A DNA stretch of 53,986 nucleotides, from positions 16,063 through 70,048 of the forward strand of contig JAPOVF010000073.1 in assembly GCA_026708285.1 (NCBI GenBank), given 5' to 3'. The notes beneath the pieces are model-generated. The model had not been told where the DNA came from. It saw nothing but the letters and a program-made list of their open reading frames with translations, and did no database searches. Shown here one piece after another: positions 18,110 to 29,737 of this stretch (position 1 is the first letter of the stretch; the number at the start of each line of letters is the position of its first letter). The position numbers and the translations under genes are program-made. Source of the stretch: Acidobacteriota bacterium (GTDB lineage: Bacteria; Acidobacteriota; Thermoanaerobaculia; Multivoradales; Multivoraceae).

Positions 18110-18167
18110 CTCGATCCCGCGCCCTGCACGGGCTCTTGCCGTTCGTCCAGTTCTGTGCAACGATCCC

Positions 18168-18198
18168 TATGCTGCGGTGCAGTAAGCAGTGCAGCATA
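18168..18198 (+). promoter_or_regulatory. Putative PhaR-type operator upstream of the lipid storage operon
   Basis: CTGC-GGT-GCAG (18172-18182), second near-site AGC-AGT-GCAG (18185-18194), framed by inverted repeat TATGCTGC...GCAGCATA. Confidence 0.6.
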
Positions 18199-18241
18199 CA
18201 GCCCCTGACCTCCCCAGATCCGCCGTCCTCTGGAGAATCCG

Positions 18242-19735
18242 ATGGCCCCGGAACTGAACCGATTCTTAAGCCCCCTCGACGCTGCCTTCCTCTACGTGGA
18301 GCGCCCCAACGCAACCATGCACATCGGTGGCTGCATGGTCTACGAAGGCGAGTTCTCCAGAGAACACGTGGTCGAGCAGGTCGCCGCCCGCATGCACCTG
18401 CTGCCCCGGTACCGGCAGCGGGTCGTGTTTCCGCCGTTCTTCGTCTCCCACCCGCTGTGGCTCGACGACCCGAACTTCGATATCGAACACCACATCGACG
18501 AAGTCTGGCTGCCAGCCGACAGCGACGAGCAGATCCTGGCGCGGGCGGCCGCCGAGGCCTACAGCGGCATGCTCGACCGCGATCGGCCGTTGTGGAAGGG
18601 GATCGTGCTGCGCGGCATTCCGGGCCATACCGCCGTGGTCTGGAAGATCCATCACGCGATGGTCGACGGTGTCTCGGGCGTCGATCTGACCATGGTGCTG
18701 AGCGACTTCTCGCCGACCGACGAGCTGCCCGAGCCGCCCGCCGAAGCCTGGTCGCCGACGCCCCTGCCCGACTCCCTGAGCCTGCTGCAGGAAGCGATGC
18801 AGCATCGCCTGGGTGAACTGAACCGGACCTGGACCGAGGCCGCCTTCGACGCCCTGCGCCCCGACGTCATGACGGAACGCACACGCGAGATGATGTCCGC
18901 CAGCAGCGCCACGCTGTCGGTCAGCGCCACTCCGGCGCCCCGTACGGTCTTCAACCGGCCGGTCGGCGGCGACCTGGGCTTCGCCTGGGCCCAGTTCGCC
19001 TTCCCGACGATGCGCGCGGTCAAGTCCAAACTGGGGGGCACTGTGAACGACATCGTGCTCACCGTGCTCGCGGGCGGCCTCGGCCGCTATCTTCGGTCGC
19101 GCGGCCAGGACACGGCCGGACTCGAACTCCGCGCCATGTGTCCCGTCAGCATGCGGCAGGAGAACGAACATGGCCAGCTTGGCAACCTGGTCTCCAACAT
19201 GATCGCTCCGCTCTTCGTCGGCGTCGACGATCCGGTAGAACGCCTCGAGAAGGAACGGGACGCGATGAACAGGCTGAAGGAAGCCGGCCAGGCCAAAGCC
19301 TTCTACCAGTTGAGTCAGTTCGGCGTCCGCGTACCGCCCCTGATGGCGGCCATGGGAGCGACGCTGCCCTTTTCCCAGACCCTCTTCAACACCGTTTCGA
19401 CGAACGTCCCAGGTCCGATGATCCCCCTCTACTTCGGACCGCACAAGCTGGTCGACTGGCTCCCGGCCGGTATCGTGTCGAACAACATCGGGCTGTTCCT
19501 CGCCATCCTGACCTACAACCAGCGCATCACTCTCGGCATCACCGTGGACTCCAGGCTGATTCCCGATCCGTGGTTCCTCACGGAGTGCCTCGAGGACGCC
19601 TATGACGAACTGCGCCAGGCCGCCGACATCGACGATGAGGAAGCGACGGGAGCCCGCTGTTTCGCCGCCGGCGCGGGCGAGGCCGAGGCCAAGGCATCAA
19701 GCCCGGAAGCCGCGCCTCTTCAGGGAGTCGCATAG
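18242..19735 (+). CDS. Wax ester synthase/diacylglycerol acyltransferase (WS/DGAT)
   Basis: LSPLDAAFL, PLW, intact HHAMVDG, GTVND, TNVPGP. Confidence 0.93.
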   Translation: MAPELNRFLSPLDAAFLYVERPNATMHIGGCMVYEGEFSREHVVEQVAARMHLLPRYRQRVVFPPFFVSHPLWLDDPNFDIEHHIDEVWLPADSDEQILARAAAEAYSGMLDRDRPLWKGIVLRGIPGHTAVVWKIHHAMVDGVSGVDLTMVLSDFSPTDELPEPPAEAWSPTPLPDSLSLLQEAMQHRLGELNRTWTEAAFDALRPDVMTERTREMMSASSATLSVSATPAPRTVFNRPVGGDLGFAWAQFAFPTMRAVKSKLGGTVNDIVLTVLAGGLGRYLRSRGQDTAGLELRAMCPVSMRQENEHGQLGNLVSNMIAPLFVGVDDPVERLEKERDAMNRLKEAGQAKAFYQLSQFGVRVPPLMAAMGATLPFSQTLFNTVSTNVPGPMIPLYFGPHKLVDWLPAGIVSNNIGLFLAILTYNQRITLGITVDSRLIPDPWFLTECLEDAYDELRQAADIDDEEATGARCFAAGAGEAEAKASSPEAAPLQGVA

Positions 19736-19751
19736 TGCGGGGAATCGTCCG

Positions 19752-20561
19752 GTGACATCGGCCCAGCGCCGCCCGACCAACCCGATCTGGAGCGTCAACC
19801 CGCGCCTGCTGCGGGACACCGTGCCGGCCGCCCTGCCGCTGTGGCTCGAGGGCTTCGCCATCGCGGAGTTCTCGGTGCTCCCGATGACGCCGACCTACCA
19901 CGGCTTCGGCGTACCGCGCGGCGATGGCGCGGCGGTCGTCGTCGTGCCGGGCTTCACCGGCACCGACGGTTACCTGGCGCCGATGCGGCGCTGGCTGGGA
20001 CGCATCGGCTACCGGCCCTATCGCTCGGACATCGGACACAACGCGGATTGCCTGGAGCGACTGGGACATCGACTGACGGCGACACTCGAAGCCGCCGCCG
20101 CACAGACGGGCCGCCGCGTCCACGTCGTCGGCCACAGCCTGGGAGGCGTGCTCGCCCGGGGCGTCGCCTGTCTGCGGACCGACCTGGTCGCCTCGGTGAC
20201 CACGATGGGAACCCCGATCAGGGGAGTCCGCTCCCACCCGCTGGTCATGCGGCTGGCGGAGGTCGTTCGCCGGCGCGCCGTCGAACGGGACGACAGCCGC
20301 GATCCCCGCTGTTTTTCGGGCGACTGCCGGTGCGACATCGTGCGTGCGGTTCAGGGTGTTTTCCCCGAGGAGATTCCACAGCTCGCGATCTACACGCGCC
20401 GTGATGGCGTCGTCGCCTGGCGTTACACGCGCCTTTACGACCCCGCGAAGAACGCGGAGGTTCCCGGAACCCACAGCGGTCTCGCCGCCAACCCCCTGGC
20501 GTACCGCCACCTGGCACGCTTCCTGAGCCGCCATCCCGCGCCGGACGAACAGGCGCGATGA
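19752..20561 (+). CDS. Alpha/beta hydrolase (lipase/esterase)
   Basis: PRGDG..VVVVPGF, GHSLGG nucleophile elbow, DGVV, GTHSGL; GTG start inferred. Confidence 0.88.
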   Translation: MTSAQRRPTNPIWSVNPRLLRDTVPAALPLWLEGFAIAEFSVLPMTPTYHGFGVPRGDGAAVVVVPGFTGTDGYLAPMRRWLGRIGYRPYRSDIGHNADCLERLGHRLTATLEAAAAQTGRRVHVVGHSLGGVLARGVACLRTDLVASVTTMGTPIRGVRSHPLVMRLAEVVRRRAVERDDSRDPRCFSGDCRCDIVRAVQGVFPEEIPQLAIYTRRDGVVAWRYTRLYDPAKNAEVPGTHSGLAANPLAYRHLARFLSRHPAPDEQAR

Positions 20562-21973
20562 CGACCGCCAACGAACTGCTCGCCGCGGACCGGGCGTTCC
20601 TCTGGAACCTGGAACGCCAGAATCCCGGTTTGCACATCGCCGGCCTGGCGCGGATCGAAGGCAGCATCGGGCGCAGCGAGGTCCTCGGGCAGGTCCAACA
20701 CCTCCGCAGGCTGCCGCGCTTCGGACTCCGTGTGGAGACCGCGCCGTTCGGGGCCCCGCGCTGGCGCGCGGCGGACTTCGATCCGGAGCAACACGTTCAC
20801 GTCGCGGTCGACGGCGACCGGAACGCGGCGTTAGGCGATGCACTCACGAAGCCTCTCGACCCTTCGCGGCCGCTCTGGGAGATTCACCTGCTGCCCGAAC
20901 ACCACGACAGCGGCGACGCGCTGCTGGTCAAGACGCACCTCGCCGCGGTGGACGGCCTGGGCACGAACGATCTGTTCGATGTCCTCTTCGACACCAGCGC
21001 CAGGAACAGCCGAGACGATCCGCCGGTGCCGCTCATGGCTGGCGACAGCGTCCACAGCACCGGGCGGCGCGCAAGCTGTTCCGGCAGGCGACTGGCCGAA
21101 TGGGTCGAGGACTGGACCGGCGCCGGACAGGATCTTGTAGACGGCGCGATGCACTTCACGTCCGAAGAGGTACGCACCGCCCTGTTGACCCTGAACGAAG
21201 CGATGCCCGACGCTGCGCTGCCCCCGCTGCCGCTGCCCTTCAACCGGGGAGGGAAAGGGCGCCGGCGCCTGATCCGGCACGAAGTCTCGTACGCCGACAT
21301 CCGCACGATCCGCAGCCGGCTCGGGGGCGCCCTCTCGGACGTCGTCCTGGCCATGGTCGGCGGCGCCCTCGAGCGCTACCTGACCGGTCGCGGCGTTCCG
21401 GTCGCGGGCCGCAACCTGAGGATCGCCCTTGCCACCGACGTTCCCGGACGCGGCGGCAAGCGGCGCAGCCTCCTCCCGATCGAAGTCCCGCTCGGACTGG
21501 GCGCCGCACACCGGTTTCGTGCCGTGCATCAGCTCGCCCGGCTGCTACGAGCGGCTCACGTTCCGGACGTTCTGGCGCGCCTTGCCCGCGTGCAGCAGCG
21601 AGGCGGTCGTCTGGCCGCGGCCGCCGCAGCAACGACCTCCCGGATCCGGCCGCCCTTCCACCTCGCGGTGGCCAACGCGACCGGTCCCCAGATCCCCGCC
21701 TTCCTGGCGGGCCGAACGGTCATCGGCTACACACCCTCCTGGCCCGTCGGCTTCGGTCAGGGGCTATCCTGCGCGTTCTTCGCCTACAACCAACTGCTGC
21801 ACGTCGGTCTCACAGTGGACGAGGGAGCCTGTCCGGACGGCGACGCACTGCCGGACCTGCTCGCCGAGTCGCTCAGCGAGCTCCGCGAAGCTGCCGGCAG
21901 CTCCCCCCGCCGGCCGGTCCGCAACCCGCCACTGGAACCGCGACCGCGTGCAGATCAGACCTTGGAGACCTAG
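20558..21973 (+). CDS. WS/DGAT paralog with degenerate active site
   Basis: DRAFL, LDPSRPLWE, HLAAVDG in place of HHxxxDG, ANATGP; ATGA-coupled to the lipase. Confidence 0.8.
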   Translation: MTTANELLAADRAFLWNLERQNPGLHIAGLARIEGSIGRSEVLGQVQHLRRLPRFGLRVETAPFGAPRWRAADFDPEQHVHVAVDGDRNAALGDALTKPLDPSRPLWEIHLLPEHHDSGDALLVKTHLAAVDGLGTNDLFDVLFDTSARNSRDDPPVPLMAGDSVHSTGRRASCSGRRLAEWVEDWTGAGQDLVDGAMHFTSEEVRTALLTLNEAMPDAALPPLPLPFNRGGKGRRRLIRHEVSYADIRTIRSRLGGALSDVVLAMVGGALERYLTGRGVPVAGRNLRIALATDVPGRGGKRRSLLPIEVPLGLGAAHRFRAVHQLARLLRAAHVPDVLARLARVQQRGGRLAAAAAATTSRIRPPFHLAVANATGPQIPAFLAGRTVIGYTPSWPVGFGQGLSCAFFAYNQLLHVGLTVDEGACPDGDALPDLLAESLSELREAAGSSPRRPVRNPPLEPRPRADQTLET

Positions 21974-22306
21974 ATGAACAGACCCATGATTCCCAAGCAG
22001 GTTCTCGACTACCAGAAGCAGGTGCTGGAGTTCCAGAAAGCGGCGTTCGAGAACGGCTACAACGCGATCGTTGCGCTGCAGGAACGGCAACTCGAACTCG
22101 CCGACCGGATGATCGACCAGGTCCCGAACCTGCCGGATGAAGCCCGTGCCCTGATGCAAACCTGGCGCGACGCCGCCGCGGAGGGTCAACAGCAGTTCAA
22201 GAACACGGTGGACGGCTCCTTCGCGGCCATCACCACCTACCTCGACCGGCTCGCCGACGGCTCCCCGGCCGAGGAACAGGCCGTCGAAACGGAGGCAGCC
22301 GAGTGA
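21974..22306 (+). CDS. Phasin-like small amphipathic helical protein
   Basis: 110 aa, Q/E/A-rich helical sequence (KQVLEFQKAAFENGYNAIVALQE...LPDEAR); starts right after the upstream stop; operon context. Confidence 0.55.
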   Translation: MNRPMIPKQVLDYQKQVLEFQKAAFENGYNAIVALQERQLELADRMIDQVPNLPDEARALMQTWRDAAAEGQQQFKNTVDGSFAAITTYLDRLADGSPAEEQAVETEAAE

Positions 22307-22872
22307 ACGACATGGCCAACGACTACCCCCGCACCGTCCGTCTGAAGGGCAAGTCCTTCGAGTTCAGGCTCCTGGGCCAGGATGACCGCGACGACATGCT
22401 TGCCTTCGCGCGCGCCCTTCCGAAGGAGGATCTCCGGTTTCTGCGCGTCGACCTGACGGATCCGAAGGTCGTCGACCACTGGATCGAGGGCGTGAGCACG
22501 GGACTCCGGATCGCCGTCCTGGCCCACGTTGACGGCCGGCTCGTGGGCTACGGCAGCCTGAACCGCCGCGAGTCTTCATGGATGCGACACCTGGGCGAGA
22601 TCCGGATCATGGTCCTGCCGGAGGTCCGGCAGGCCGGTCTCGGAGGCCACTTGGCGCACGATGTCTTCCAGCTCGCCCAGCAGATCGGACTGACCAAGAT
22701 CGTGGCCCAGATGGCCCGCGAGCAGCGCGGCGCCCGCCAGATGTTCCACAAGCTGGGCTTCTCGATCGAAGCCCTGCTCGCGGATTGGGTGATCGACCCC
22801 AACGACGCGACCCACGACCTGATCCTGATGTCCTACGACGTGACGGGTCTCGAGGCCGGGGCCGGAGCGTAG
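22303..22872 (+). CDS. GNAT family N-acetyltransferase
   Basis: HLGEIRIMVLPEVRQAGLG acetyl-CoA motif A; FHKLGF. Confidence 0.88.
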   Translation: MNDMANDYPRTVRLKGKSFEFRLLGQDDRDDMLAFARALPKEDLRFLRVDLTDPKVVDHWIEGVSTGLRIAVLAHVDGRLVGYGSLNRRESSWMRHLGEIRIMVLPEVRQAGLGGHLAHDVFQLAQQIGLTKIVAQMAREQRGARQMFHKLGFSIEALLADWVIDPNDATHDLILMSYDVTGLEAGAGA

Positions 22873-22878
22873 GCCGGA

Positions 22879-23094
22879 TCAGCTCCCCTCGGCGTCGGCG
22901 TCGGATCCGCGCCGGGCCGCCAGGCCCGGAAACCACAGTTTGAACATTTCCTGGGGGTCGGCGTACTTCAGGTTGGCGGTCAACCGATCGCGGAACCGTT
23001 CCAGCATCTCGTTCTGAATCCCCGCCACGTCGGGAAGACCGAGAAAGGCGCGCGCCTCCTCGGGTGTGCAGTCGATATCCAGTTTGATCTTCAA
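22879..23094 (-). CDS. DUF6489-like small protein
   Basis: TTG start after AAGGAG; KIKLDIDCTPEEARAFLGLPDV signature. Confidence 0.75.
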   Translation of the reverse strand: MKIKLDIDCTPEEARAFLGLPDVAGIQNEMLERFRDRLTANLKYADPQEMFKLWFPGLAARRGSDADAEGS

Positions 23095-25022: not shown

Positions 25023-26249
25023 ATGCCTGACGGGCCCACGCCGGAACCGCGCCCCCACGGCCCGCTGCACGGCATTCGCGTTCTCGACTTCACCAGCTTC
25101 ATCGCCGGCTCCTACGGCGCCATGCTGCTCGGCGACATGGGCGCCGATGTCCTGAAGATCGAATCGCCGGGCGGCGACAATGCCCGCCACTGGGGCCCCT
25201 TCATCGGCAGCGAGAGCCGGATGTTCCAGGCGTGGAACCGGAACAAGCGCGGCATCGCCGTCAACCTGAAGACCGAGGAGGGGCGGCAGGTCGTCTACGA
25301 CCTCGTCCGGGACGCCGACGTGGCGATGGAGAACTTCCGGCCCGGAGTCGCCGCCAGGCTCGGCATCGACTACGACACGCTCAGCCGCCACAACCCCGGG
25401 CTCATCTACGCTTCCTCGAGCGCCTTCGGCGGCAGCGGACCGTACGCCCAGCGTCCCGGCTACGACCCGGTGCTCCAGTCGATGGCCGGCGCGGCGCACC
25501 TGCAGCAGCTCATGAACGGCGTCGCGGCGATCTGTCCGGTGGCGGTTTCCGACTACATGGCCGCCGTGCTCACGGTCTGTTCGATCAACGCCGCCCTCCT
25601 CCACCGCGAGCGCACTGGCGAGGGCCAGCAGATCGAGACGTCCCTGCTGCAGGCGATCATGAGCGCCCAGGCGCAGTCCTACATCCAGCCGCTCGAGGCC
25701 GAGATCACCGGGCCGCCCGGCATCTTCCCCTACCGGATGTTCGCCGCCGCCGACGGCCCCATCTTCATCGCCGCCGGCACGGACAAGTTCTGGAAGCTGT
25801 TCTGTGAAGCGATCGGCCGCGACGATCTGGCCAGCGACCCCCGCTATGCGACCAACCCCCAACGCGTCACGCAGGCCGGGAAGCTCAGCGCCGAGATCGA
25901 CCCGATCGTTGCCTCTCGGCCGGCCCACGAGTTGGAAGCCGACCTCGTGGCGGTGGGCGTTCCCTGCGCCGCCGTCCGTTCGGCCGACGAGTTCTTCGAC
26001 GATCCCCAGGTCGAGGCGATGGCGATGAGCCAGGTCGTCCGGCACCCGCAGCTCGGTAACCTGCGAATGGCGGGCGTACCGTGGCGCTTCTCCCGCTCCC
26101 CGGCGTCGATCAGGCGACCGGCTCCGGCGCTGGGCGAACACACGGACGAAGTCCTCACCGAGCTGGGCTATGACCGGGAACGGATCGCCGCCCTCCGGAC
26201 CTCCGGCGCCGTTCGTGGAGCCGAAGGCGGCGCCGCCGGCAGTTCCTAG
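25023..26249 (+). CDS. Class III CoA-transferase (CaiB/BaiF)
   Basis: PLHGIRVLD, LGDMGADVLKIE, NRNKR, ENFRPG, GYD, PALGEHT. Confidence 0.93.
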   Translation: MPDGPTPEPRPHGPLHGIRVLDFTSFIAGSYGAMLLGDMGADVLKIESPGGDNARHWGPFIGSESRMFQAWNRNKRGIAVNLKTEEGRQVVYDLVRDADVAMENFRPGVAARLGIDYDTLSRHNPGLIYASSSAFGGSGPYAQRPGYDPVLQSMAGAAHLQQLMNGVAAICPVAVSDYMAAVLTVCSINAALLHRERTGEGQQIETSLLQAIMSAQAQSYIQPLEAEITGPPGIFPYRMFAAADGPIFIAAGTDKFWKLFCEAIGRDDLASDPRYATNPQRVTQAGKLSAEIDPIVASRPAHELEADLVAVGVPCAAVRSADEFFDDPQVEAMAMSQVVRHPQLGNLRMAGVPWRFSRSPASIRRPAPALGEHTDEVLTELGYDRERIAALRTSGAVRGAEGGAAGSS

Positions 26250-26275
26250 ACCCACGACCGTTCTCCCGCCATGAC

Positions 26276-28591
26276 GTGAGGTCCACAGCGCTCAACCGGG
26301 ATCGGGGTCCCGGCACGCCAGGTTCGGCGCCCGATGCGGCCACGCGAGTGGTCCTCGTGGGCGCCGGCCATACCCACGTCCAGTTGCTGCGACACTGGAT
26401 CATGGAGCCCAATCCGGCCATCGACGCCACTCTGGTCGTCGACACGCCGATCGCCGTCTACTCCGGGATGGCGCCGGGGCTGGTAGCCGGCCAGTACGAG
26501 CGTCACGAACTGGAGATCGACGCCGTGCCGCTGGCGCGCAGGGCCGGCGTACGAGTGATTCTGGCCCCATGCACCGGGGTCGAAGCGGCCGCCCGCCGGT
26601 TGCTGATCGAGGGCCGCGAAGCGCTCGCCTTCGACCTGGCTTCCTTCGACGTGGGCTCCACGGTGGCCGCCCTCGACCTTCCCGGCGTGCGCGAGCATGC
26701 GGTTCCGACCCGCCCGATCAACCGCCTGGCGGCGGTGGTCGAGGGTCGCGTGGAGTCCCTGAAGAGCCGCCGCCCGAAGGTCGTCGTGGTCGGCAGCGGC
26801 GCCGGCGGGATCGAGTTGGCCTTCTGCATCGACGCTCGACTCAGAAGCCGCGGACTCGAACCGAAGACGACGATCGTCGAGGCGGGCGACGGCATTCTTC
26901 CTGGCTATCACCCGTCTCTCTCCAGCCGGATCGAAGCCGCGGCTCGCAGGCGCGGCATCGACACGATCCTGGGCGCCAAGGTCGTCACGGTCGAAGCGGA
27001 CTCGGTCCGTCTCGACGACGGTGACCGTCTCGACGCCGACCTGACGTTCTGGGTCACTGGCGCCGCCGCGTTGCCGATTCTCAGCGACTCGGACCTGCCG
27101 CTCGACGATGGCGGCTACGTCCGCACTCGATCGACCCTGCAGGTCGAGGGGCACGACCACATCTTCGCGGTCGGCGACTGCGCGACTCTGACCGAGCACC
27201 CGCGGCGGGCCCGCGCCGGGGTCTACGCGGTGCGCATGGGGCCCTACCTCATCGACAACCTCGATCGCCTGCTGGCCGGGCGACGGCTCCGTCGGTACAG
27301 GCCGCAGAGCGACTTTCTGTCTCTCCTCAACCTCGGCGACGGGACCGCCGTCGGCGCCAAGTGGGGACACGCCTTCGAGGGCAGGTGGGTCATGCGGTTG
27401 AAGGATCGGATCGACCGCCAGTTCATGGAGCGCTTCCAGGCGCTCGATGAAGACGGCGTACCCCGTCCCTGGTTCGCCGGAATGGGCCACGCGAACGGCA
27501 GCGACGATGCCGCCGGCGGGATGGACCACGCGAGCGCAGCCGCTGCGGAACCCATGTTCTGCGGTGGCTGCGCCGCCAAGGTCGGGCCGGATCGCCTGCA
27601 GCGAGCGCTCGCGCGGGCGGATCTTCACGCGAAGACCGGCCAGAACTCCGAGGTCATCCTCGATGTGGGGACTCCCGACGACGCCGTGGCCTACCGGACG
27701 CCGGCGGGCGACCGGGTCGTCGCCTCGCTCGACGCGTTCCCGGCCTTTACCGACGACCCATGGCTCGTGGGGCGGGTCGCGGCGGTCAACGCCTGCTCCG
27801 ATCTCTACGCCACCGGCGTCGCGCCCAGGGTCGCCCAGGCCCTGGTCACCCTGCCCCATGCCGCGGAGGGCGATGCCGCGGAAGAGCTGCTGATCCAGGT
27901 TCTCGGCGGCGCCCGCACGGCACTGGACGCCGAGAACGTGCTTCTGCTCGGCGGCCACACGAACACCGGCCCGGAACTCGTCGTCGGCTTCCACGTCGAA
28001 GGAGTCGCGGGCTATGGCCGCGAGCTGCTGCTCAAGGCCGCGGTCGAGCCGGGTGACGCGCTGGTGCTGACCAAGCCGCTCGGCTGCGGCGTCCTGCTCG
28101 CCGCCGACCGGATGGGCCTGTGTCCGGGTCGCTGGCTCCGCGCCGCCTTCGCCTCGATGCAGGTCAGCAACCGCGGTGCGCTCGAGGCCGCCCGGCGCGC
28201 CGGGGCCCGGGCCGCAACCGACCTCAGCGGCTTCGGTCTGGCCGGCCACGTCGGCGAGATGGCCCAAGCCAGTGGCGTCGACATCGAGGTCGACACAGGC
28301 ACCGTCCCCGCCCTACCGGGCGCCCTGGAGCTCCTCGAGCGCGGCGAGAGGAGCACCAGCCACGAACAGAACACCCGCCTGCCGTTGACGGTCAGTCGCC
28401 AGGCCCCCGCCGGACCGCGGCTGGAGCTGGCCTTCGACCCCCAGACCGCGGGCGGGCTGGTGCTGGCGGTCGAACCCGAGCGGAGCGGCCGCCTGGTCGA
28501 TGATCTCCGCTCCCAGGGACTCGATGCGGCCTGCGTCATCGCACAGGCCCTGACGCCGCGCTCCGAGCGGCCGCAGTTGATCCTCCGCTAA
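26276..28591 (+). CDS. selD: FAD/NAD oxidoreductase-selenophosphate synthetase fusion
   Basis: N-terminal LVGAGHTH, YSGMAPG, VVGSGAGG, FAVGD; C-terminal CGGCAAK, DDA, GGHT, TKPLG, TDLSGFGL, DPQTAGGL. Confidence 0.9.
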   Translation: MRSTALNRDRGPGTPGSAPDAATRVVLVGAGHTHVQLLRHWIMEPNPAIDATLVVDTPIAVYSGMAPGLVAGQYERHELEIDAVPLARRAGVRVILAPCTGVEAAARRLLIEGREALAFDLASFDVGSTVAALDLPGVREHAVPTRPINRLAAVVEGRVESLKSRRPKVVVVGSGAGGIELAFCIDARLRSRGLEPKTTIVEAGDGILPGYHPSLSSRIEAAARRRGIDTILGAKVVTVEADSVRLDDGDRLDADLTFWVTGAAALPILSDSDLPLDDGGYVRTRSTLQVEGHDHIFAVGDCATLTEHPRRARAGVYAVRMGPYLIDNLDRLLAGRRLRRYRPQSDFLSLLNLGDGTAVGAKWGHAFEGRWVMRLKDRIDRQFMERFQALDEDGVPRPWFAGMGHANGSDDAAGGMDHASAAAAEPMFCGGCAAKVGPDRLQRALARADLHAKTGQNSEVILDVGTPDDAVAYRTPAGDRVVASLDAFPAFTDDPWLVGRVAAVNACSDLYATGVAPRVAQALVTLPHAAEGDAAEELLIQVLGGARTALDAENVLLLGGHTNTGPELVVGFHVEGVAGYGRELLLKAAVEPGDALVLTKPLGCGVLLAADRMGLCPGRWLRAAFASMQVSNRGALEAARRAGARAATDLSGFGLAGHVGEMAQASGVDIEVDTGTVPALPGALELLERGERSTSHEQNTRLPLTVSRQAPAGPRLELAFDPQTAGGLVLAVEPERSGRLVDDLRSQGLDAACVIAQALTPRSERPQLILR

Positions 28592-28648
28592 AGAGTCGCG
28601 TCACGCCTCGGACGAAAATCGGGCGTAAGTCGTGCTACGATCAACCGC

Positions 28649-29737
28649 ATGCCCTCACCCGGTTCCGTACGCGGCCGCGGCGCCGCCGCCAACCCGAGGA
28701 ACCGGTTCGAACGCATCGACATCGACTTCGAGCCCGGCGAAAGCACCGCCGAACGCGGCGACTCACCGCCGACGGAGCTCTTCCGCGACGATTCGAAGAC
28801 GATCCTGTCGCGCAACGACTCACCCGACATCGGCTTCCAGTACAGCCTCAACCCCTATCGCGGCTGCGAACACGGCTGCATCTACTGCTATGCCCGGCCC
28901 ACCCACGAGTATCTCGGCTTCTCCGCCGGGCTCGACTTCGAGAGCCGGATCCTGGTCAAGGAAAGGGCGCCCGAACTGCTGCGCGAGGCTCTCCTGAATC
29001 CCCGCTGGACACCCCAAGTCATCATGCTCTCCGGCGTCACCGACCCCTATCAGCCGATCGAGCGGCGACTTCGCGTCACGCGCCGCTGCCTGGAGGTCCT
29101 GGTCGAGTTCCGCAACCCGGTGGCGATCGTGACGAAGAACCACCTGGTGACGCGCGATCTCGACCTCCTCCTCGAACTGAACCGGTTCCAGGCCTGCGGC
29201 GTCTACCTGTCGATCACGTCGGTGTCCCCGTCGCTTTCTGCTCGCATGGAGCCGAGGGCCTCGAGCCCAAGGCGGCGCCTGGACGCGGTACGCCAACTGA
29301 GCGAAGCCGGCATTCCCTGCGGCGTGATGGCGGCGCCCATCATCCCGGGCCTGAACGACGATCAGATTCCCGCCATCCTGGAAGCCGCGGCCGAGGCCGG
29401 AGCGCGGCGCGCGGGCTACATCCTGGTCCGGCTGCCGCACGGGCTTCGCGGACTCTTCGCCGACTGGCTCGGCACACACTTCCCCGACCGCCGGGATCGA
29501 GTCCTGAACCGCCTCCGCGAGGCCCGCGGCGGCGATCTCAACGACCCCCGATTCCACCACCGCATGAAGGGCGGCGGCGAGTACGCCGATCAGATCGGCC
29601 GGCTGTTCGAGACCTCGCGCCGCCGCTTCGGCCTCGAAGGAGGCCGCACTGCGAGCCCGTCGGCAACCGCGTTCCGCCGACGAACCGCCCAGAGAACTCT
29701 GTTCGAGACCCCGCCTTCCCCTCAGGCACAGCCATAG
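28649..29737 (+). CDS. PA0069 family radical SAM protein (SplB-related)
   Basis: GRGAAANPRNRF, NPYRGCEHGCIYCYARP (CxxxCxxC), TDPYQP. Confidence 0.92.
   Translation: MPSPGSVRGRGAAANPRNRFERIDIDFEPGESTAERGDSPPTELFRDDSKTILSRNDSPDIGFQYSLNPYRGCEHGCIYCYARPTHEYLGFSAGLDFESRILVKERAPELLREALLNPRWTPQVIMLSGVTDPYQPIERRLRVTRRCLEVLVEFRNPVAIVTKNHLVTRDLDLLLELNRFQACGVYLSITSVSPSLSARMEPRASSPRRRLDAVRQLSEAGIPCGVMAAPIIPGLNDDQIPAILEAAAEAGARRAGYILVRLPHGLRGLFADWLGTHFPDRRDRVLNRLREARGGDLNDPRFHHRMKGGGEYADQIGRLFETSRRRFGLEGGRTASPSATAFRRRTAQRTLFETPPSPQAQP

Follow-up and report, generated by a model that had tools for sequence, protein, structure and literature searches.

The circuit formed by the regulator PhaR and a phasin is regarded as a marker of polyhydroxyalkanoate (PHA) storage. 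In Rhodococcus, the MLDS/MLDSR and TadA-type arrangement pairs a small structural protein of the droplet with a regulator that controls the gene of this protein and is believed to respond to the droplet itself. To our knowledge, the fat or wax droplets of bacteria outside the actinomycetes have neither a known coat protein nor a known dedicated regulator. Here we describe a row of five genes (positions 18242 to 22872, plus strand) in a 53,986-nucleotide stretch of DNA from a sponge-associated member of the Acidobacteriota, the whole of which is called the window below. The genes encode two proteins of the wax ester synthase/diacylglycerol acyltransferase type (WS/DGAT 1 and WS/DGAT 2), a lipase-like hydrolase, a 110-residue protein termed P110 and a GNAT acetyltransferase. 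Judged from sequence, we take them to be, with a probability of roughly 60%, a neutral-lipid storage operon that is controlled by PhaR and equipped with a phasin-like coat.

Several published observations bear on such a combination. In Sinorhizobium meliloti, PhaR leaves the DNA when polyhydroxybutyrate (PHB) appears, as stated in an excerpt of PMC12542648, and a passage of a review (PMC5658603, citing Kalscheuer 2001) reports a phasin of Rhodococcus ruber that was isolated from lipid inclusions. The neutral lipids of Acidobacteriota are called unexplored in one section of PMC10351704, and the same excerpted source notes phasin or ‘PHA system’ genes near WS/DGAT genes on Pseudomonadota scaffolds, where they are read as PHA genes. 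PhaR has also been used as a proxy for PHA producers, and an extract of a preprint reports it in 16% of soil Acidobacteria (10.1101/2024.12.02.626346). Our own full-text searches of the literature returned no description of a WS/DGAT system linked to PhaR or to phasins.

P110 and its paralog at the pha locus

P110 (positions 21974 to 22306, plus strand) is an acidic protein of 110 residues. The same genome encodes phaR and a class III phaC on another contig (C380), where phaR (PF07879, E = 3.7e-29) is divergent from a row made up of a gene for a 112-residue protein (P112), a phaE-like gene and a phaC of class III type. The operon, which a preliminary description of the DNA had credited with regulating the lipid body, does not itself encode the regulator. 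BLASTP aligns P110 with P112 at 33% identity over 85 residues (E = 1e-18). The divergent order of phaR and P112-phaE-phaC holds in 20 of 20 loci, with P112 next to phaR every time; the gene of P110 itself sits in the WS/DGAT operon, away from pha genes, and is packed between the second WS/DGAT gene and the GNAT gene in all 20 loci. The phaE-like gene is short (125 residues) and stays under the curated cut-offs of both NCBIfam models that it matches, and its product scores higher on the model of the B. megaterium PhaR subunit than on the PhaE model.

All 36 of the other genomes of the genus that were examined encode both P110 and P112. Queries with the two proteins found neither in 24 genomes from 11 other families of the order, and among 201 Acidobacteriota genomes (134 genera sampled) the P110 family was seen in only three, all of this genus. 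With a threshold of E ≤ 1e-3, a joint P110/P112 profile recovered 737 cluster representatives, and 204 remained at E ≤ 1e-10; the clusters of the protein Atlas that lie nearest to P110 come from Thermodesulfobacteriota. The nearest Atlas clusters that bear a Pfam domain carry PHB_acc, Phasin_2 and PHA_synth_III_E, with scores of 0.80–0.82 that are low and serve as leads only. The source label ‘polyhydroxyalkanoate synthesis regulator phasin’ is attached to one of 10 and to one of 80 relatives. In a tree of 45 members, P110 (100/99) joins four metagenome proteins (98/93) and P112 is placed elsewhere; since the two fall in separate clades, they are old paralogs rather than the outcome of a recent duplication. 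The closest relatives of P110 outside the genus, the metagenome proteins P0035 and P0045, have long C-terminal tails rich in Lys, Ala and Pro, and the tail of P110 is acidic. The Lys/Ala/Pro-rich tails presumably resemble the DNA-binding tails of granule proteins of the PhaF/PhaM type.

The predicted structure of P110 (pLDDT 83.3) is a hairpin of two helices that span residues 8–49 and 55–94. Both helices are amphipathic, with mean hydrophobic moments of 0.34 and 0.38 that were reached by 136 and 36 of 2000 shuffles, respectively; amphipathic helices are a weak feature, common to many helical proteins. Searched against solved structures, a profile built from the family alignment found only designed helical bundles and odorant-binding proteins, with weak E-values. 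P112 (L002:1810-2145) has no Pfam match, and P110 matches none of the families PF05597, PF09361, PF09602 and PF09650 even at E-values up to 10. The first characterization of the 110-residue protein as phasin-like therefore stands insofar as it shares a family with the small protein encoded at the phaR/phaEC locus, and falls insofar as it is in no Pfam phasin family. On sequence grounds, P110 is a member of an unnamed family that is tied to pha loci through P112. The available evidence suggests that it works like a phasin, which makes it a candidate coat.

Putative PhaR operators upstream of both loci

A candidate promoter and operator region lies upstream of WS/DGAT 1, at positions 18136 to 18197 of the plus strand; the sequence there reads ATGCTGCGGTGCAGTAAGCAGTGCAGCAT. 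It begins with a -35-like hexamer, TTGCCG (18136–18141), which is followed by a TGc and the -10-like hexamer AACGAT (18156–18164), both hexamers being putative. Beyond these are the two TGC-N3-GCA boxes that had been pointed out at the start, TGCGGTGCA at 18173–18181 and AGCAGTGCA at 18185–18193, assigned here by motif and conservation. The first forms the core of site 1, which in full reads TGCTGCGGTGCAGTA (18170–18184) and conforms to TGCRNYGCA; the second, the core of site 2, follows 12 bp after site 1. According to an excerpt of PMC12849132, the core bound by Ralstonia eutropha PhaR is TGCRNYGCA, and that of the S. meliloti protein is YGCRNYGCR, which a section of PMC12542648 describes as verified by electrophoretic mobility shift assay with mutated sites; the published motifs were obtained by mobility shift assay or footprinting. 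The core of the upstream site fits these published motifs, boxes of the same type recur in the intergenic region between phaR and P112 (GCAGCAT...ATGCTGCACTGCA), and the genome encodes one PHB_acc_N protein (PF07879).

The upstream regions of 21 orthologous WS/DGAT operons (the window and 20 genomes of the genus) were compared, together with 21 regions from the pha side. In the alignment of the WS/DGAT regions, a conserved block extends from the -35-like TTGCCR through the second box. Mean pairwise identity is 0.79 over the whole block and rises to 0.865 within the sites; outside the block it drops to 0.42 on the upstream side and to 0.51 on the downstream side. Site 1 matches TGCRNYGCA in all 21 regions and site 2 matches NGCRNYGCA in 20 of them. 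Most of the differences among the nine variants of site 1 fall on the R, N and Y positions; three variants also show changes in the 3' flank outside the 9-mer. The 12-mer TGCTGCRNYGCA, derived from the two compared regions themselves, is found in 21/21 WS/DGAT promoters and in 21/21 intergenic regions on the phaR side. The 4.99-Mb genome has only 12 copies of it, both strands counted; six of these places are outside crude gene calls, and the WS/DGAT operon and phaR/P112 are the only ones in a promoter context. The two promoters are also alike in geometry, with a -35 element, 17–18 nucleotides, a TGc with its hexamer and then the box. On the evidence of these alignments, the boxes are a phylogenetic footprint and putative PhaR operators.

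The 5' leader of P112 is about 58 nucleotides shorter in the host genome and in one other (G022) than in the other 19 sampled, with the operator block unchanged (L002 about 1760–1800, compared with L026–L044). A count of 7-mer pairs gave five pairs within 60 nucleotides, which is about the chance level. Genome-wide pattern scans with mismatches were dropped, as they returned mostly CTG-rich coding DNA.

Organization and gene content of the operon

The host genome measures 4.99 Mb in 402 contigs and is 93.6% complete; the window is located on contig C109, has a G+C content of about 69%, and its DNA is found in sponge and marine metagenome sequencing runs. Proteins nearly identical to those encoded here bear source labels of Acidobacteria or Acidobacteriota metagenome-assembled genomes. 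The close packing of five co-oriented genes that the preliminary description had reported was verified in the open reading frames, at all four junctions (a 16-nt gap, an ATGA overlap, a 0-nt gap and a GTGA overlap). None of the 37 window reading frames scanned by profile was recognised as a pha gene, again as described at first. Elsewhere in the window, and without relation to the operon, one frame (26174–28591) fuses a pyridine-nucleotide-disulphide oxidoreductase domain to N and C domains related to AIR synthase, and a radical SAM gene (28592–29737) comes immediately after it. Conservation of the neighbourhood, which had been put forward as a check, is high: of 20 genomes sampled from the genus, 19 have the complete five-gene order, and all five genes are kept in these although dS against the window ranges from 0.25 to 0.99. 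It had also been suggested that the cluster might turn out to be a detached piece of a pha locus. This is not the case: the operon and the pha locus are never adjacent, and in closed genomes they are separated by 101 kb to ~2.3 Mb. A PMT-type glycosyltransferase gene is found upstream of the operon in 17 of 20 loci; in the other three it is gone from the neighbourhood and the operon is retained.

WS/DGAT 1 (18242–19735, plus strand; 497 residues) contains both domains of its family, with PF03007 at E = 6e-47 (161 bits, gathering cut-off 23.6) and PF06974 at E = 8e-32 (110.8 bits, gathering cut-off 20.7), and exceeds the curated cut-off of TIGR02946 (376.5 bits against 309.95). Both histidines of the HHxxxDG motif are needed for WS/DGAT activity. 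They are intact in WS/DGAT 1, where the motif reads HHAMVDG, and are retained in 21/21 sequences. The ratio of nonsynonymous to synonymous substitution rates (dN/dS) of this gene is 0.17–0.31.

WS/DGAT 2 (20558–21973, plus strand; 471 residues) is a paralog in which the second histidine of the motif is a leucine (HLAAVDG). HLxxxDG is present in the window copy and in 19 of 19 full orthologs, and is seen also in the pairwise alignment with WS/DGAT 1. The matches to PF03007 (E = 2e-21, 77.1 bits) and PF06974 (E = 6e-13, 49.5 bits) are both over the gathering scores, and the TIGR02946 score of 197.8 bits is below the cut-off of 309.95. Compared with the window copy, dN/dS is 0.28–0.41 (eight comparisons), the highest among the five genes and well under 1. 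In three genomes of the genus (G034, G026 and G275), the gene has shrunk to in-frame remnants. With its motif changed, its dN/dS well under 1 and only remnants left in these three genomes, WS/DGAT 2 is a copy that is maintained yet dispensable and is probably non-catalytic. The remnants are situated between the hydrolase gene and P110 (L007:5617-5997, L063:4717-4905 and L064:5038-5418), and the one in G034 is still an open frame of 127 residues. Since at least two sizes occur among the remnants, more than one deletion probably took place.

Between the two WS/DGAT genes lies that of the lipase-like alpha/beta hydrolase (19752, with a GTG start, to 20561, plus strand; 269 residues), which has a GHSLGG nucleophile elbow and a candidate triad of S129, D218 and H241. 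Four Pfam hydrolase families match it under their cut-offs, the best with 25.7 bits against 25.8. In a sequence search of the PDB, it resembles solved family I lipases of Burkholderia and Pseudomonas, with E-values of 1.6e-11 to 3e-7 over residues 62–160 only. GHSLGG is found in 21 of 21 sequences, and the three triad residues do not vary among 11 sequences compared, one of them a 37%-identical homolog from another family, the gene of which lies directly upstream of a WS/DGAT gene. The structure model of the hydrolase has a mean pLDDT of 48.7 and is too poor for judging the geometry of the triad. Residues 187–194 (window positions 20310–20333) are an insert rich in Cys (CFSGDCRC) that the 37%-identical homolog lacks; it may act as a lid, or as a metal or disulfide element.

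The last gene, coupled translationally to P110, encodes the GNAT acetyltransferase (22303–22872, plus strand; 189 residues; PF00583 at E = 9e-11, 42.5 bits, gathering cut-off 20.7). With a dN/dS of 0.07–0.27 it is the most conserved gene of the operon. Its structural relatives in a PDB sequence search are generic only (2ge3, E = 2e-7), and no GNAT gene was found beside WS/DGAT at nine loci of other families.

On the minus strand, 6 nucleotides past the GNAT gene, stands the convergent DUF6489 gene (22879–23094; 71 residues; TTG start behind GGAG), the presence of which was confirmed by a match to PF20099 (E = 4e-10, 40 bits, gathering cut-off 23.6). It is single copy in the genome. Its inclusion in the system did not hold: the gene is within 3 kb of the GNAT gene in only 9 of 20 loci, directly adjacent in five, and we place it outside the proposed system. 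As a further phasin-like part it was rejected, given this poor synteny and an upstream region with no box. A full-text search found no literature mention of the name DUF6489.

PhaR, phasins and lipid genes across the class

We surveyed 81 genomes from 49 genera of the class, 70 of them outside the genus; the genomes are related, so that the counts are not independent. WS/DGAT (PF03007) was found in 30 of the 81 genomes (19 of the 70 outside the genus), and PhaR (PF07879) and the phasin family PF05597 in 36 each (25 outside the genus in both cases). PHA synthase was found in 11 of 81 and in none of the 70, both with PF07167 and with the genus's own PhaC protein as the query, and both of these searches detect the genus's own synthase. 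TIGR01836, run without a separate positive control, found a PHA synthase in none of the five genomes to which it was applied. Among the 70 genomes, 18 have WS/DGAT and PhaR, one has WS/DGAT without PhaR, seven have PhaR without WS/DGAT and 44 have neither; this split was counted by hand, and two of the WS/DGAT matches are weak.

In genomes in which no PHA synthase was found, PhaR and a true Pfam phasin also go together with lipase and WS/DGAT genes, which supports the earlier proposal that PHA-type parts accompany lipid genes. Of the 25 genomes with PhaR, 19 have a PF05597 match no more than ~1.5 kb away from it, and of the 19 genomes with WS/DGAT, seven, from three families, have that gene at most 10 kb from PhaR or the phasin. 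At 14 PhaR/phasin loci annotated with Pfam, we found a patatin-like lipase in eight, one or more ArsA-like ATPases in six, an ABC1 kinase in four and SCP2 in two, and WS/DGAT is divergent from the phasin or PhaR gene in six. ABC1 kinases are among the most prevalent plastoglobule families, and three of four Synechocystis ABC1 kinases are in the lipid-droplet proteome, as stated in an excerpt of PMC12223511. Two such families have phaR and phasin promoters of the form TTGACA-N17-TATATT, the spacer of which contains a CGCAGYGCG box. The patatin linked to PhaR has no homolog in the host genome or in four of four closed genomes of the genus (a self-hit control was positive), which fits its replacement by the lipase-like gene of the operon.

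In other families of the class, a module of one or two ArsA-like ATPase genes, PhaR, PF05597 and patatin recurs at L057, L058, L059, L065–L068, L070, L072 and L076, often with an ABC1 kinase and sometimes with SCP2. The loci of this ArsA/Get3-like ATPase module are from genomes in which no PHA synthase was found. One PhaR-phasin locus (L069; G256:C64:31000-39273) has a G+C content of only 37% and comes from a 2.0-Mb genome, the other loci being at 60–73%.

Proposed function and alternative explanations

In the reading that we favour, the operon would make and turn over a neutral storage lipid, either wax ester or triacylglycerol or both. WS/DGAT 1 would carry out the final acyl transfer and the lipase-like hydrolase would mobilise the stored lipid, while P110 would coat the lipid body in the manner of a phasin and the GNAT protein would modify a partner. 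WS/DGAT 2, its catalytic histidine lost, would have a structural or accessory role, if any. The two putative PhaR operators would be placed just past the -10 region, such that PhaR bound at sites 1 and 2 would block the promoter. As the 12-mer is common to the operon promoter and the phaR/P112 region, we propose that the single PhaR of the genome represses both loci. Once hydrophobic inclusions form, PhaR would be drawn onto them and both loci would be released, and PHA and neutral-lipid storage would thereby be coordinated. The binding of PhaR, the repression, the lipid product and the location of P110 in the cell are the predicted parts of this scheme; the gene content, the lost motif, the paralogy, the conserved operon and boxes, the fit to the published motif and, in relatives that gave no PHA synthase hit, the occurrence of PhaR and phasin together with WS/DGAT and lipase were observed directly. 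The preliminary description had proposed one operon that serves a lipid body with PHA-type parts, and the paralogy, the boxes, the synteny and the relatives agree with it; no support was found for DUF6489 as a part or for a place of P110 in a Pfam phasin family.

Several results weigh against a PhaR-controlled lipid operon with P110 as its coat. P110 has no Pfam or NCBIfam match at all, a Foldseek search of the PDB with its model returned nothing at E ≤ 0.001 (best E = 1.6, generic helical hairpins), and of 77 relatives scanned none is over a Pfam cut-off and only five have a sub-threshold match, to Phasin_2, Phasin or PhaP_Bmeg. The host genome also encodes a PF05597 phasin (E = 1e-15; contig C295, ~26310–26830, minus strand), the gene of which is directly behind another gene with no PhaR-type box visible, and this phasin could be the real coat of the lipid body. 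The 9-mer core is common, with 624 occurrences on both strands of the genome; the window holds eight where 4.87 are expected, and eight are reached by 11 of 100 shuffles. The significance of the boxes is accordingly drawn from their conservation and from the twin site at the pha locus, and not from rarity of the core. A scan for the sigma-70 consensus found no promoter upstream of WS/DGAT 1, which is why the -35 and -10 hexamers are given as putative. At other-family WS/DGAT loci away from PhaR and phasin there is no clear box upstream, the co-occurrence counts come from related genomes, and a PHA synthase of unrecognised type could conceivably be present in the other families.

Alternatively, P110 may be a second PHA phasin and the operon one of several carbon-metabolism targets of a broad PhaR regulon, with no distinct lipid body formed or coated. 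S. meliloti PhaR does control many genes beyond PHB metabolism (excerpt of PMC12542648), and the P110 family is linked to the pha locus through P112 and, at the low scores given above, has PHB_acc, Phasin_2 and PHA_synth_III_E as its nearest Pfam-bearing Atlas clusters. We nevertheless consider this explanation unlikely. At every locus, P110 has a WS/DGAT copy and the GNAT gene as translationally packed neighbours and is not near pha genes, it stands in a separate clade from its old paralog P112, the extended box is in promoter context at two places of the genome only (by crude gene calls), and relatives in which no PHA synthase was found keep PhaR and a phasin beside lipid genes.

It is more improbable still that the conserved block is a mere promoter or the site of another regulator, its likeness to PhaR sites arising by chance, and that the genes form an ordinary WS/DGAT operon in which the small protein is an uncharacterised one. 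In favour of this, the core is short and has many occurrences in this GC-rich genome, TGC-rich palindromes are common operator types, and the 12-mer was derived from the very regions in which it is counted. However, that 12-mer persists in all 21 regions on either side in genomes with dS up to about 1, the substitutions fall mostly at the degenerate positions of the published motif, the two loci have a common promoter geometry, and the position of the twin site, between phaR and the gene of the first granule protein, is exactly the one known for PhaR autoregulation sites. We give the least credence, and very little of it, to the idea that the acyltransferases make envelope or secondary-metabolite esters, perhaps with the upstream membrane glycosyltransferase, and that the small protein and the GNAT serve that pathway. 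The WS/DGAT fold is indeed common to complex-lipid acyltransferases (relatives show similarity to the Condensation domain), and the PMT-type gene precedes the operon in most loci. Yet WS/DGAT 1 is over the cut-off of the curated WS/DGAT model, the glycosyltransferase is missing in three of 20 loci while the operon remains, a separate conserved promoter stands between the two, and the partners seen in other families (patatin, SCP2, ABC1 kinase and phasin) point to lipid droplets.

Extended to the class as a whole, the PhaR-controlled lipid operon leads to a tentative scenario, to which we would assign somewhat under even odds. PhaR and phasin would then not belong to PHA storage in the first place but would be the sensor-repressor and the coat of wax-ester or triacylglycerol droplets, accompanied by patatin, ArsA-like ATPases, ABC1 kinase and WS/DGAT in genomes that gave no PHA synthase hit. 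The genus would later have gained a class III PHA synthase locus and would now have one PhaR and two old paralogous coats from a new protein family (P112 for PHA and P110 for lipid), with two kinds of inclusion under one operator code. Judging by the distribution of genes, PhaR as a proxy for PHA production may mislead in Acidobacteriota. If PhaR and phasin-like proteins do serve neutral-lipid bodies as well, genome surveys that rely on phaR or phasin proxies would over-count PHA production, and abundant sponge symbionts would be predicted to keep two carbon reserves under one switch. It would also provide a simple, testable sensor-repressor mechanism for the control of lipid droplets in Gram-negative bacteria. 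With two inclusion systems, paralogous coat candidates and a common operator all in one genome, the genus lends itself naturally to such a test.

Comparison with known systems

The likeness to the Rhodococcus MLDS/MLDSR and TadA-type arrangement is one of logic only, a coat gene under a droplet-sensing regulator; here the parts are a PhaR homolog and a helical-hairpin coat candidate from an unnamed family, and no sequence relation is expected. With wax ester and triacylglycerol synthesis of the AtfA type, the operon has in common a WS/DGAT 1 with both domains, a score over the curated cut-off and an intact HHxxxDG motif. It differs in its fixed gene set, which adds a lipase-like gene, a paralog that looks inactive, the gene of a phasin-like protein and a GNAT gene, and in the PhaR-type boxes that precede it.

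In the PhaR-PhaP circuit, as known from S. meliloti (AniA/PhaR) and R. eutropha (PhaR), a PHB_acc_N regulator acts through operators with a TGCRNYGCA core, which lie between phaR and the gene of the first granule protein, and the target is a small amphipathic helical protein. At the level of sequence and prediction, these features recur here. Three differences set the present case apart: the putative second target is a WS/DGAT-lipase operon with no pha gene, P110 and P112 are in none of the four Pfam phasin families named in an excerpt of PMC5658603, and in related families the circuit occurs in genomes that gave no PHA synthase hit. The class III PHA synthase locus has its counterpart in the genome's own phaR and P112-phaE-like-phaC, and P110 is the paralog of P112, whereas the WS/DGAT operon is without a synthase and at the distance from that locus given above. 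Judged by gene content, what is particular here is the union in one genus of a real pha locus and a lipid operon that have one operator in common and are further linked by paralogous coat candidates of a new family. The different type of lipase, the decaying WS/DGAT paralog and the added GNAT gene are likewise specific to this operon.

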